A DNA stretch of 64,000 nt, from sequence record SRR20825006_1584; one strand, given 5' to 3'. Shown in pieces: positions 54,893 to 58,889 of the stretch. Within the stretch, counting starts at the first letter, position 1; each line of letters begins with the position of its first letter. A model generated the notes under the pieces. That model saw only the letters and a program-made list of their open reading frames with translations, was not told where the DNA came from and did not search any database. The position numbers and the translations under genes were made by a program.

Positions 54893-55480
54893 ATGAGCCA
54901 AGAGCAGACAAACGACATGCCAGAAGAAAACCCAGACGTGCCGGAAGAAGAGTTTGCTGAAGACGCTTTTGCAGGCCAGGAAGACGCGGGCGCTGATGAG
55001 GTGGCCAAACTTCAGGCTGAAGTGGCAGAGCTGAAAGACCGCCTGCTTCGCGCTGTGGCGGAGACGGAAAACGTGCGCCGCCGTGCTGAAAAAGACAAAG
55101 CGGATGCAAGCGCTTATGGTGTCACCAATTTCGCGCGCGATATGCTCAATATTTCGGATAACCTGCGCCGCGCGCTGGATAGCATGCCTGAAAAAGTGGC
55201 TGATGATCTCAAGGCCTTCATTGACGGCGTTGAGATGACAGAGCGTGAGCTTCTCAACATTCTTGAGCGCCACGGCATCAAGAAGGTGAACCCGGAAGTG
55301 GGTGAAGCTTTTGACCACAAGTTCCACCAGGCGATGTTTGAAGCACCAACAACCGAGCATGTACCCGGCAGCATCATGCAGGTGATAGCACCCGGTTATG
55401 TGATCAAGGACCGTTTGCTGCGCCCTGCCATGGTAGGTGTTGCCAAAGGCGAAGTGCAGAAAGTGGACACCGAAGTTTAA
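54893..55480 (+). CDS. grpE: Nucleotide exchange factor GrpE
   Basis: LRAVAETENVRRR, FDHKFHQAM and GYVIKDRLLRPAMVGV. Confidence 0.98.
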   Translation: MSQEQTNDMPEENPDVPEEEFAEDAFAGQEDAGADEVAKLQAEVAELKDRLLRAVAETENVRRRAEKDKADASAYGVTNFARDMLNISDNLRRALDSMPEKVADDLKAFIDGVEMTERELLNILERHGIKKVNPEVGEAFDHKFHQAMFEAPTTEHVPGSIMQVIAPGYVIKDRLLRPAMVGVAKGEVQKVDTEV

Positions 55481-55504
55481 CCACTTTCGCCGCTAGCGTT
55501 GAGG

Positions 55505-55530
55505 AAGCCCGGTTTTGCCGGGCTTTTTTT
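55505..55530 (+). terminator. Intrinsic terminator after grpE
   Basis: AAGCCCGG-TTTTG-CCGGGCTT followed by a T-run. Confidence 0.85.
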
Positions 55531-55607
55531 GTTTGGCCTGTCACGCGCACGTCATTAGTCTCTGCATCAATGCGGGCTCGTTCAATGAGCGTTTGTAGGG
55601 GATAAAG

Positions 55608-56594
55608 ATGCTAAAGGCAGCCATTAAAACCACGCTTTTTTCTGCGGTATTATCCGCTAGTGCTTTTGCTGCGGATACCAGCTTCCTTGTGTTTGGGGAC
55701 ATGCCCTACAACAAGGAACAGTTCCAGCAGATGCAGGCTTTAAGCGTTGAGCTGAAGGCGCGGGATACGGCCCACAAGCTGCCGTTTGGCATTTTTTATG
55801 GCGACACCAAAGCGGGTGGCGAGCGCTGCACCAGGGAGCGCCTGACTGAGAACCGTGATCTTATCCTGGGCATGATCAATGCGCCGGTGTTTTTCACCCC
55901 GGGCGATAACGACTGGACAGACTGTGACCGTGGCGGTGATGACGAGCTGCATATTCTGGATAACGTGTTGCGGCCGCTGTATTTCTCAGGCGATATGCTG
56001 CCCGAGAACCGGTTTGAGGAAGCGGCCGCGTGGCAGGTTAACCGCCAACCTCGTTTTCCTGAAAATGTGCGCTGGCGCTACCATGACATCCAGTTTGGGG
56101 CACTTCATATCCTCGCGACAGGCAATGGCCGTGAAGAAATCAGCGTTGGTGATGTTGCCGAGAAGCTTGACCGGGTTGACGCGCGGGATGCTGCCAATCT
56201 GGAATGGCTCGCGGATATTTTCATTGCGGGTGGTGATGCCAAAGCCCTTGTGCTCGCGATCCATACAGATCCCACCAAAACCGATGACAGCCTGCCAAGC
56301 TGCAACGCCGATATCAGGCAGAACTGCCACCCCTATCGGGATTTTCTCGCGGCGCTTAAGGGCCACGCCCAAAACTACGGCAAGCCGGTGCTTCTGGTGC
56401 ACGGCGATACCAACCCTTACTGTGTTCAGGAAGGCTATCTGGGGGCTCAGAATTTAACCCGCCTCAATGCATCAGGCGATTATCACCCCGGTATGACGGA
56501 GGTGCGCTTCGCGGCCCAAGCAGGCGCTTTCCGTTTCCATCACCTCGGGGAAGGTGACAGCTTCAAAGAAACCTGCCCACTGAAAGGCGAGTAG
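55608..56594 (+). CDS. Secreted calcineurin-like metallophosphoesterase
   Basis: Signal peptide; GDMPY, GDTK, TPGDNDWTDC and LVHGD motifs. Confidence 0.85.
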   Translation: MLKAAIKTTLFSAVLSASAFAADTSFLVFGDMPYNKEQFQQMQALSVELKARDTAHKLPFGIFYGDTKAGGERCTRERLTENRDLILGMINAPVFFTPGDNDWTDCDRGGDDELHILDNVLRPLYFSGDMLPENRFEEAAAWQVNRQPRFPENVRWRYHDIQFGALHILATGNGREEISVGDVAEKLDRVDARDAANLEWLADIFIAGGDAKALVLAIHTDPTKTDDSLPSCNADIRQNCHPYRDFLAALKGHAQNYGKPVLLVHGDTNPYCVQEGYLGAQNLTRLNASGDYHPGMTEVRFAAQAGAFRFHHLGEGDSFKETCPLKGE

Positions 56595-56662
56595 CTTCAA
56601 AACGCATAAATAGGCGTTGTTTATAGTCGTCTACGTCGATTGAGGTGAGGCCGAGTCGTTTA

Positions 56663-56677
56663 GAACAAATCGGGAAC
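56663..56677. promoter_or_regulatory. Alphaproteobacterial LexA (SOS) box
   Basis: GAAC-AAATCGG-GAAC (GAAC-N7-GAAC). Confidence 0.65.
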
Positions 56678-56793
56678 TTGATCTCATATATTGTAGTATG
56701 TAGAAAATTTATCCATATATATAGTATACTTATGTACATATAACACTTTGTCTTGACTCCGCGAGCAGCTCTCCGACAAACTTTATAGGATGA

Positions 56794-56886
56794 GTAAACA
56801 AAAGGCCGTTATGGGCGGCAACCCTTAACGGCCTGTGTTTGCGATCCGCAATATGATTGACGTCAGGAGCGGACTGCTGTGTAGAT
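56794..56886 (-). ncRNA. Predicted antisense (counter-transcribed) small RNA in the DUF3892 leader
   Basis: Minus-strand TTGACC-17-AATATT at 56921-56893; hairpin at 56841-56877; terminator-like hairpin at 56803-56834 followed by TTTGTTT on the minus strand. Ends are approximate. Confidence 0.5.
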
Positions 56887-56955
56887 AAGGGAAATATTCC
56901 CGAAAACGGTATGAAGGTCAAGCCTGTCGTCTTTAATATCAAGGAGTCGAAGGCG

Positions 56956-57243
56956 ATGGCCAAGACGCAGACTATTAGGTGCATCAATAAAGATGATCGT
57001 TTGAACCCCTATGAACGGATCATTTCGGTCGGAGGGGTAAATCCAGACAGTTCTCGCTGGAAAATAAGCCAGAAAAAAGCAATTTCGGGTATCAAATCTG
57101 GCGAGTGGGTTTACTATGTAGGCACTGGTAAAGACAGGGTGAGGGTTGTTGTTGCTCAAAGCCCTTATGGAAATGATTACATCAAAACCCAATCTGATGG
57201 TAAGGAGCCGAACAACTTGCTCAACCTACCTGAGTGTCCATAA
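56956..57243 (+). CDS. DUF3892-like small protein (95 aa)
   Basis: AAGGAG RBS; IRCINK.DR.NPYERI..VGG...RWKISQ..AI..I..G...YYV...YIKT..DG..PNNLL.LPECP pattern. Confidence 0.85.
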
Positions 57244-57258
57244 TTATCAGAAAATAAC

Positions 57259-57285
57259 AAAGGCCGCCAAAACTGGCGGCCTTTT
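57259..57285. terminator. Bidirectional terminator between the DUF3892 gene and lysS
   Basis: AAAGGCCGCCA-AAAC-TGGCGGCCTTTT. Confidence 0.85.
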
Positions 57286-57305
57286 GTGTCGGGGGTTGGT
57301 TTCGC

Positions 57306-58889
57306 TTAAGCGACGGCTTTGCCGTTGATGGCTTTTTCCACCAGCTCGAGCGTTTCCTTGATGCCGTATAGGGCGATGAAACCGCCCATGCGTGGGCCCT
57401 GGCTTTGGCCCAGCAGCACTTCATAACAGGCGCCAAACCAGTCGCGCAGGTTATCAAACTGCGCGTCTTTACCGGCGGAATACACCTCGGTCATGATCAC
57501 CTCGGCGTCGGTCTCGTTCGCGTCCAGATCCTCAAGGCGGCGCTTCAGGCTCTCAAACGCCGCACGTTCCTGCGGTTCCGCCAGGCGGTAGGATTTGTTC
57601 GGTTTTACAAAATCCTCATAATAGCGGATCGCATAGCCCATCAGCTTATCAAGCTCAGGGAAGGTTTCTGCCGTTGCGCCCTCTGCATAACGACCCACAA
57701 ACCCCCACAGGGTTTCACGGTCTTCCGCATTGGCGGCGGAAACGAGGTTGAGCAGAAGCGCGAAGCTCACCGGCAGTTTGGCATCCGGCACTTCGCCGCC
57801 ATGGATGTGCCATGCCGGGTTTTTATAGCGGTCCAGCGCTTCCTGTTCCTGATATTTGCCAACGAAGGTGTAATATTCATCAACCGCCTTGGGGATGACG
57901 TCAAAATACAGGCGCTTGGCTTTCTTTGGGCTCTGGAACATGTAAAGCGACAGGCTCTCGGGGCTCGCATAGGCCAGCCACTCTTCAATCGTCAGGCCAT
58001 TGCCTTTGGATTTGGAGATTTTCTGCCCGTCCTGGTCAAGGAACAGTTCATAATTGAAGCCTTCAGGCGGTTGGCCGCCCAGAATGCGACGGATAATGCT
58101 GGAAAGCTTCACGCTTTCAATCAGGTCAGAGCCCGCCATTTCATAGTCAACGTCGAGCGCATCCCAGCGCATGGCCCAGTCAACCTTCCACTGGCATTTC
58201 ACCCGGCCGCCGGTCACCAAGGTTTCCGTGCGCTTGCCGGATACATCCTCAAACGAGATGAGGCCCGCCTCCGGGTCTTCAATGCGCACAGGCACCTGTA
58301 GTACTTCACCAGTCTCGGGGCTGATCGGCAGGAAAGGTGAATAGGTCTGGCGGCGTTCTTCACCCAGCGTTGGCAGGATCACATTGATGATCTTGTCGTA
58401 GCGCTGGCAGATTTTCACCAGTGTCTCGTCAAACCGGCCGGATTTGTAGCAGTCCGTTGCCGAATAAAACTCATAAGTGAAGCCAAACTGGTCAAGGAAG
58501 GCTTGCAGGCGTGCGTTGTTGTGCGCGCCAAAGCTTGCGTGTGTGCCAAAAGGGTCCGGCACCACGGTTAGCGGCTTGCCAATGGCGGCTGCCAGCAATT
58601 CCTGGTTTGGTACGTTTGTTGGTACTTTCCTCAGGCCGTCCATATCATCCGAGAAACAGATCAGCTTGGTCGGGATGTCCGAGATTTCACGGAAGGCGCG
58701 CATCACCATGGTGGTGCGGGAAACCTCACCAAAGGTGCCGATGTGCGGCAGGCCAGAAGGCCCATAGCCGGTTTCAAACAGCACATACCCCTTTTCAGGT
58801 GCGCCCGATTTATACCGTTTGACCAGCTTCTCTGCTTCCTGGAATGGCCAAGCTTTGCTGGAGAGGGCGAGATCAATATTACCGGTCAT
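57306..58889 (-). CDS. lysS: Lysine--tRNA ligase, class I
   Basis: ETGYGPSGLPHIGTFGE (HIGH), KISKSKGNG (KMSKS) and GPRMG. Confidence 0.97.
   Translation of the reverse strand: MTGNIDLALSSKAWPFQEAEKLVKRYKSGAPEKGYVLFETGYGPSGLPHIGTFGEVSRTTMVMRAFREISDIPTKLICFSDDMDGLRKVPTNVPNQELLAAAIGKPLTVVPDPFGTHASFGAHNNARLQAFLDQFGFTYEFYSATDCYKSGRFDETLVKICQRYDKIINVILPTLGEERRQTYSPFLPISPETGEVLQVPVRIEDPEAGLISFEDVSGKRTETLVTGGRVKCQWKVDWAMRWDALDVDYEMAGSDLIESVKLSSIIRRILGGQPPEGFNYELFLDQDGQKISKSKGNGLTIEEWLAYASPESLSLYMFQSPKKAKRLYFDVIPKAVDEYYTFVGKYQEQEALDRYKNPAWHIHGGEVPDAKLPVSFALLLNLVSAANAEDRETLWGFVGRYAEGATAETFPELDKLMGYAIRYYEDFVKPNKSYRLAEPQERAAFESLKRRLEDLDANETDAEVIMTEVYSAGKDAQFDNLRDWFGACYEVLLGQSQGPRMGGFIALYGIKETLELVEKAINGKAVA

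Follow-up and report, generated by a model that had tools for sequence, protein, structure and literature searches.

A small gene of the DUF3892 family, at 56956-57243 on the plus strand of a 64,000-nucleotide (nt) stretch of DNA from sequence record SRR20825006_1584 (hereafter the window), appears to carry within its leader a second gene, facing the opposite way, for a small antisense RNA. The two, at 56750-57290, probably form one portable, RNA-controlled two-gene unit. From comparative sequence analysis the existence of the predicted antisense RNA gene seems quite likely, and our favoured reading, to which we assign a probability of about 0.6, is that this cis-antisense RNA is a negative regulator of DUF3892 in a self-contained module that moves horizontally. 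It is cross-genome conservation, rather than single-sequence statistics, that lifts the observation above chance. The elements on which the reading turns are these:

56753-56782, plus strand: candidate sense promoter (TTGACT at 56753-56758, an 18-nt spacer and a weak CAAACT), with the messenger RNA (mRNA) start predicted near 56789
56795-56886, minus strand: predicted cis-antisense small RNA of about 92 nt, between the minus-strand promoter and terminator, its 5' end placed from the -10 box
56795-56834, minus strand: predicted intrinsic terminator of the antisense RNA (hairpin 56803-56834, U-run 56795-56802; -20.8 kcal/mol)
56844-56874, minus strand: stem-loop 1 of the predicted antisense RNA (hairpin 2 of the leader), with a stem of 6 base pairs (bp) and a 19-nt loop
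56893-56921, minus strand: predicted antisense RNA promoter (TTGACC, a 17-nt spacer and AATATT; 9 of 12 consensus matches)
56927-56950, plus strand: hairpin pairing the Shine-Dalgarno sequence AAGGAG, which forms in the 181-nt leader fold
56956-57243, plus strand: DUF3892 gene, 95 amino acids plus stop, with a match to Pfam PF13031

We propose that the antisense RNA would be made from a sigma-70-type promoter of its own inside the DUF3892 leader (56921-56893), proceed toward the sense promoter (56753) and finish in an intrinsic terminator (56834-56795), giving a molecule composed of a short 5' tail, a stem-loop and a terminator hairpin. The facing promoters would lie about 100 bp apart and the small RNA would pair with the nascent leader, so that DUF3892 might be held down through duplex cleavage, promoter interference and/or premature termination at the shared hairpin, the Shine-Dalgarno hairpin adding repression in some members of the family; the protein would then be released if the small RNA were lost or the sense promoter strongly induced. 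That both RNAs are made, where their 5' ends lie, the sign of the regulation and the action of the protein are what we infer from this arrangement. As predicted, the antisense RNA complements about the first 95 nt of the leader predicted for DUF3892, and, read by eye, it contains no ATG.

An initial annotation, made from the sequence of the window alone, had described a DUF3892-like gene with a structured leader under antisense or attenuation control, and the elements it listed are there: the sense -35 box TTGACT at 56753 with a weak -10 (CAAACT at 18-nt spacing), the long hairpin 1 (outer stem 56794-56842, core 56803-56834, loop CGGCAA), a second hairpin, folding at 56844-56874, the minus-strand TTGACC-17-AATATT with its nine consensus matches, and a 12-codon upstream open reading frame (uORF) at 56790-56828. 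Its statement that hairpin 1 has a U-rich tail only on the minus strand was too strong: the tail there (TTTTGTTT) is much better than the plus-strand tail (TGTGTTTG), but the latter also passes a lenient terminator rule. Of the two modes of control that it offered, a predicted counter-transcribed RNA of ~90 nt is backed by a box, a terminator, a distance and covarying stems that recur across phyla, whereas attenuation through the uORF fails. The terminator and stem-loop of an antisense RNA account for hairpins 1 and 2 better than leader attenuators do.

Statistics of the single sequence take the argument only part of the way. The plus-strand 181-nt leader folds at -64.3 kcal/mol (z -4.61; none of 200 shuffles is as stable) and a 116-nt minus-strand stretch at -36.9 kcal/mol (z -5.57). 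A promoter scan found three promoter-like sites in 1.2 kb against 1.3 +/- 1.1 in shuffled sequence, so the minus-strand promoter, taken on its own, is barely above chance. A search of 55400-58000 on both strands with Rfam release 15, a check that the initial annotation had proposed, placed the leader in no family on either strand: there were 14 matches at E<=10, none within 56600-56955 and none at the gathering score.

Conservation and covariation of the minus-strand layout

Homologous loci came from named genomes (seven), metagenomes (48) and one viral contig, with proteins 36-76% identical to the window's; removing 10 duplicate rows left 45 non-redundant loci with at least 200 nt of upstream sequence. 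Between 90 and 200 nt upstream of the ATG, a hairpin followed by a T-run occurs on the minus strand in 24 of the 45 and on the plus strand in nine, five of which are the same two-sided hairpin, the window's included. Closer to the gene (0-90 nt) the corresponding counts are three and none, and farther out (200-320 nt) four and six. The sequence TTGAC lies 25-50 nt from the ATG on the minus strand in 17 loci, against 0-2 in every other 25-nt bin, and on the plus strand in a single locus; at 175-200 nt, the position of the sense -35 box, it is found on the plus strand in six loci (0-4 in other bins) and on the minus strand in one. A strict -35/-10 rule is satisfied on the minus strand at 10 loci and on the plus strand at three. 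Among four fresh subfamily loci drawn from 401 genomes of the phylum, three have a minus-strand hairpin with a T-run, at 122-174 nt, and none has one on the plus strand.

Read along the minus strand, the common layout is TTGAC, about 17 nt, an A/T-rich hexamer, a short tail, a stem-loop, a short linker, a G+C-rich hairpin and a T-run, and it is seen in Rhodospirillales, Hyphomonadaceae, Ignavibacteria-type and unclassified loci. The Ignavibacteria-type loci L028 and L046 fold differently, and the RNA sequences diverge strongly between lineages. Flanking genes vary by locus (ThiC, a TIR protein, lysS, PNPOx, an IS1 fragment); because they do, the RNA gene and DUF3892 are the only constant unit, and the neighbours do not explain the minus-strand layout.

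Two further features of individual loci were noted. On the minus strand of L059, L067, L071 and L080 a GATTC-containing run, seen by eye, stands 14-17 nt after TTGAC, at the -10 position, and could mark a different type of small-RNA promoter in those lineages. L080 itself, a homologue whose upstream region shows the common layout, is found toward one end of a 42-kb contig from a viral collection.

Closer relatives allow the leader to be compared with the gene it precedes. An alignment of G000 (the genome carrying the window's copy) with G006 and G024 retains the sense -35 box, the two hairpins (with pairs changed), the minus-strand -10 stretch and a conserved plus-strand GTCAAG, the -35 box of the minus strand; L032 also keeps the sense -35 box. 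Against L032, G006 and G024, respectively, the RNA stretch of G000 is 91, 79 and 65% identical and the DUF3892 coding sequence 69.5, 69.5 and 62%, with third codon positions at 45, 44 and 33%. Judged by these identities, the RNA stretch is under purifying selection and is better conserved than the coding sequence.

Covariance models were built in two rounds, R1 seeded on four close sequences and R2 rebuilt on six diverse matches, and with filters off the model recovered 10 loci at E<=2.2e-5, all in the expected place and on the expected strand. Across the ten-locus alignment 98.1% of cells pair and both sides change in 14 of 16 pairs, whereas none of 500 shuffles reaches any of five covariation measures and slid controls are 36-60% paired. 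All six pairs of the stem-loop 1 helix change on both sides (96.6% of cells paired). The leader structure sketched from one sequence thus holds up among DUF3892 homologues, where the two stems recur and covary. The minus-strand reading gives 142 Watson-Crick cells, 10 G·U, no A·C and three other, and the closing pair of stem-loop 1 is, in five loci, a G·U that pairs on the minus strand only. Folded without the model, the minus strand is more stable than the plus in 17 of 21 hand-picked segments, with a tie in the window.

In searches with R2, 56795-56886 scores 65.7 bits and the next best place in G000 22.7 bits; no other strong site, and hence no second copy of the RNA, was found in that genome by this model search, the only one made for it. 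Among 150 other genomes of the class there is one strong match (45.9 bits), about 80 nt upstream of and opposite a DUF3892 gene, and it shows the same box, stem-loop and terminator. Another 22 weaker places (L088-L091 in G000; L093-L110 in the class sample) were taken as false positives, none of them having a DUF3892 neighbour.

Counter-evidence and alternative explanations

Several observations weigh against control by an antisense RNA, or loosen the case for it. The terminator rule is not satisfied in 21 of the 45 loci (L067 and L071, among these, do have the hairpin, with a poorer tail) and the TTGAC box is missing in 28; the loci are, moreover, mutually related, so all such counts overstate independence. 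Fitting of the covariation alignment followed the structure and the minus-strand reading, which favours paired cells and G·U. Matches to R2 at E<=0.01 also turned up in 21 other genomes of the class, and past its ten loci the model is insensitive, with the expected sites in L059, L064, L046, L071 and L035 scoring amid noise. At the locus itself the sense -10 is poor, leaving the sense start, and hence the extent of the overlap, uncertain, while the predicted antisense RNA misses the ribosome-binding site, so that the route of repression is not evident. The Shine-Dalgarno hairpin is weak family-wide (mean pairing probability 0.66 against 0.59 in shuffles; six of 34 loci beat 95% of shuffles), and in the window's local fold Shine-Dalgarno pairing fails the same comparison (0.30 against 0.50). 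Lastly, no run recorded as RNA turned up for 56500-57400, and contigs from runs that we guessed to be RNA lack strand and ends and miss 56795-56872.

Those contigs, from three such runs belonging to three studies, match 56873-57241 only, at full identity, and a fourth run of the kind gave none. Being without strand or ends, they say nothing about antisense RNA; if they are RNA, they offer a weak hint that the sense transcript includes a minimum of 83 nt ahead of the ATG and spans the antisense promoter. In one of them the match breaks off at an A-run within the gene (57078) and is followed by 17 A, which looks like oligo-dT priming or polyadenylation of a sense transcript.

The alternative that survives best accepts the small RNA and gives it another main job than repression, as partner or ligand of the DUF3892 protein (bound, guarded or sensed by it, for example) or as a trans regulator of other genes that simply accompanies it. 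That the RNA and protein genes move together with no other conserved partner, that the predicted RNA leaves the ribosome-binding site uncovered and that its sequence outconserves the coding sequence all accord with such a role, and excerpts of a 2025 preprint (10.1101/2025.01.14.632903) liken the DUF3892 fold to double-stranded-RNA-binding domains and ribosome hibernation factors, proposing a sensor of RNA or ribosomes. Our AlphaFold2 model of the 95-residue protein (mean predicted local distance difference test score 83.7; three strands, a helix, three strands) yielded no informative match to an RNA-binding fold: Foldseek against the PDB gave nothing at E<=0.001, the best Z in a wide VIA-align comparison was only 3.1, and a sequence profile search of the PDB returned no matches at E<=1. 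On these results the model neither confirms nor excludes the published likeness. The strong divergence of the RNA between lineages fits an antisense molecule co-evolving with its own target better than a conserved ligand, and we regard the partner or ligand role as unlikely.

Less probable again is that the structure acts in the sense mRNA, as a cis-regulatory leader (one that binds a ligand or protein, or a transcription attenuator), perhaps bound by DUF3892 itself, with the minus-strand features as by-products. The leader is indeed long and folds well (z -4.61), Watson-Crick covariation is identical on both strands, and hairpin 1 is T-rich on the plus strand too in the five two-sided loci of the 45. 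What speaks for the minus strand are the asymmetries between the strands (T-runs 24 against 9, TTGAC 17 against 1, G·U 10 against 0, and 17 of 21 folds); few unpaired positions, moreover, are conserved between lineages, and the leader matches no Rfam family even at E<=10. Two of its elements, the Shine-Dalgarno hairpin and a palindrome, fall beyond the bounds of the predicted antisense RNA and could function only in sense RNA or as DNA, while the uORF that classic attenuation requires is not conserved. The palindrome and the uORF are placed as follows:

56790-56828, plus strand: 12-codon uORF MSKQKAVMGGNP, overlapping hairpin 1; rejected as a functional element
56889-56901, no strand assigned: 13-nt palindrome GGGAA ATA TTCCC, overlying the antisense -10 box

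The uORF was rejected since it is kept in one of seven relatives, L032; at its position G006 has MRR and then a stop, L034 has MESIG, G024 and L040 have unrelated open reading frames, and L026 and L050 have none. The palindrome, which could be a sense-leader hairpin or an operator, is retained in L034 with both arms changed (read by eye), and in six of 17 loci the corresponding 36-nt stretch has a fold better than that of 95% of shuffles. Equivalents of the Shine-Dalgarno hairpin with changed arms occur in G006, G024, L034, L026, L059 and others; on the weak shuffle test, sequestration was dropped as a general feature of the family and kept for some loci only. In the loop of stem-loop 1 a CUCCU run was seen by eye that could base-pair with the Shine-Dalgarno sequence of the gene itself; the window and L032 have it, L040 and L080 have it in part, and seven other loci so read do not.

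Least probable is that nothing is regulated here, hairpin 1 being an insulator or an orphan terminator that marks the border of an insert and the promoter-like sites chance products of AT-rich DNA: the promoter scan (3 against 1.3 +/- 1.1), the setting of this AT-rich segment in a variable slot and the hairpin of L026, which could also terminate the upstream thiC, agree with it, but chance does not explain the same strand, spacing and covarying stems across phyla with unrelated neighbours, nor a conservation exceeding that of the coding sequence, and a minus-strand terminator ahead of a plus-strand gene is of no use to the upstream neighbour, whichever way that neighbour points.

The protein, its slot and the surrounding sequence

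The DUF3892 gene has a Shine-Dalgarno sequence, AAGGAG (56941-56946), 9 nt ahead of its ATG, and its product bears out the family assignment made at the outset, matching Pfam DUF3892 (PF13031) over residues 7-92 at 71.4 bits (E 8.6e-20; gathering cut-off 22.3), the sole Pfam family matched in a scan at E<=0.01. A scan of NCBIfam gave no match, and a search of PADLOC-DB 2.0, which holds known and candidate defence proteins, gave no family at E<=0.1; PHROG 8224, a phage protein family of unknown function, is matched at 8e-8. The protein sequence is polar along its whole length. Homologues 52-76% identical occur in Rhodospirillales, Hyphomonadaceae, Ignavibacteria, Peribacteria, Algoriphagus and Microvirga. 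G000 also has another DUF3892-like gene, a distant one, at C1:1237522-1237800 (L116; profile E 4e-15), with no antisense-RNA signature upstream. Around the unit in the window lie the following:

55608-56594, plus strand: upstream gene of 328 amino acids, co-directional, without a Pfam or NCBIfam family
56663-56677, plus strand: GAAC-N7-GAAC, a possible LexA box 293 nt upstream of the ATG; a lead only, outside the core claim
57259-57284, no strand assigned: two-way terminator common to DUF3892 and the convergent lysS, with an 11-bp stem, seven G-C pairs and T-runs on both sides
57306-58889, minus strand: class I lysyl-tRNA synthetase gene (lysS), convergent to the DUF3892 gene

The description of this segment as an AT-rich insert holds: GC content is 0.456 at 56500-56999 and 0.498 at 57000-57499, against 0.53-0.60 in neighbouring bins, and the slot varies among relatives. 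We compared loci equivalent to window positions 56595-57253, set between the same pair of housekeeping-type genes, in three genomes, L003 (G012), L004 (G006) and L017 (G024). In G012, the closest relative, the flanks are 92-96% identical and the slot holds a membrane protein and an XRE-type helix-turn-helix (HTH) gene, with no DUF3892. In G006 and G024 the order is a membrane protein, co-directional, then an HTH gene, a leader of ~320 nt, DUF3892 and lysS. PF13031 is present in five of 32 genomes of the genus, and the DUF3892 subfamily profile in four of 401 genomes of the phylum, G000 counted. The upstream 328-residue protein has a hydrophobic N-terminal stretch, and its gene has 92% DNA identity in G012.

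Two other neighbourhoods were distinctive. Directly upstream of the unit in L029 (1561-2283) is a TIR-domain protein of the CAP12/Pycsar effector type (E 1.7e-13), and in L064 the neighbour is an IS1 transposase fragment; by virtue of these, the DUF3892 unit sits sometimes among defence or mobile genes.

The GAAC-N7-GAAC motif is a perfect match to the alphaproteobacterial LexA type and lies 76 nt upstream of the sense -35 box. L032 has it, likewise 293 nt from the ATG and with a spacer of its own, G024 carries it with one mismatch and G006 lacks it; a perfect copy also stands just upstream of lexA in G000. The one occurrence in the window is within chance (shuffle mean 1.7), and G000 as a whole has 95 copies against 157 of a reversed control. 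As a feature of the family the box was rejected, being present in two of 45 loci against two of 45 for a control motif. G000, G006 and G024 share a conserved AT-rich block, at 56649-56750 ahead of the sense -35 box, with CCATATATAT and TACTTA runs; it could be an operator or a second promoter, and the scan lists TAGAAA-18-TATACT at 56701-56730.

Significance and comparison with known systems

If the predicted RNA is real, a dedicated and conserved antisense RNA would offer a first concrete way into the regulation of a stand-alone DUF3892 member, and it would define a widespread family absent from Rfam, with the same architecture in Alphaproteobacteria, Ignavibacteria-type and candidate-phylum loci. 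In the titles and passages returned by a full-text search of the DUF3892 literature, mention of an antisense RNA was not found. Antisense control suggests a protein that has to be held off, as is typical of harmful effectors. We put forward a toxin-antitoxin or defence function for the unit only tentatively. Equally speculative is a fuller version, in which the unit would be an undescribed mobile RNA-protein conflict module shared across phyla, of a type I-like toxin-antitoxin or abortive-infection kind, with a soluble DUF3892 toxin directed at RNA or the ribosome and an antitoxin that is antisense to the far 5' leader and not to the ribosome-binding site, wired perhaps, in the window's lineage, to the SOS response through the LexA box.

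Excerpts of Lau et al. 2022 (10.1101/2022.04.27.489752) describe DUF3892 as uncharacterized, with an anti-phage role predicted on the authority of Burroughs and Aravind 2020, and place it behind CapH/CapP-like regulators, under tight, damage-responsive control. The window shares the family with these operons and differs from them in setting: it has no divergent pair of HTH and metallopeptidase genes upstream, having the co-directional 328-residue gene instead, and the neighbours in G006 and G024 are a co-directional membrane protein and an XRE-type HTH gene. Control in the window would, moreover, be exerted by RNA, a route unmentioned in those excerpts.

Nearer in organization is SymE/SymR of Escherichia coli; as described in excerpts of Kawano et al. 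2007 (PMC1891008), a soluble protein of ~100 residues, under LexA control, is held off at several levels, and SymR is a cis-encoded small RNA fully complementary to the symE mRNA's 5' end. The window would likewise combine a small soluble protein with a cis-encoded RNA complementary to an mRNA 5' end, in this case predicted from sequence, and the LexA-type motif 293 nt upstream in the window's lineage might prove a further likeness, as a lead only. Unlike SymE, the window's protein belongs to DUF3892 and has no match to the SymE family (AbrB/MazE-like); its predicted RNA ends ~70 nt short of the start codon, leaving the ribosome-binding site uncovered, and several phyla carry the unit.

Type I toxin-antitoxin loci and plasmid counter-transcripts (hok/sok, ldr/rdl, CopA/CopT of R1) have facing promoters and a 60-100-nt stem-loop antisense RNA that ends at an intrinsic terminator; pairing takes place within a long structured leader, in some loci with a sequestered ribosome-binding site, and the toxin of type I loci is usually a small, hydrophobic, membrane-active peptide. 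Facing promoters and a terminator-ended stem-loop antisense RNA in a long leader are what we predict at the window locus. The protein, by contrast, is by its model a beta-rich soluble domain of 95 residues rather than a short hydrophobic membrane peptide, and no leader peptide or coupled reading frame is conserved at DUF3892 loci. The DUF3892 unit thus resembles both SymE/SymR and the type I loci and is a member of neither.

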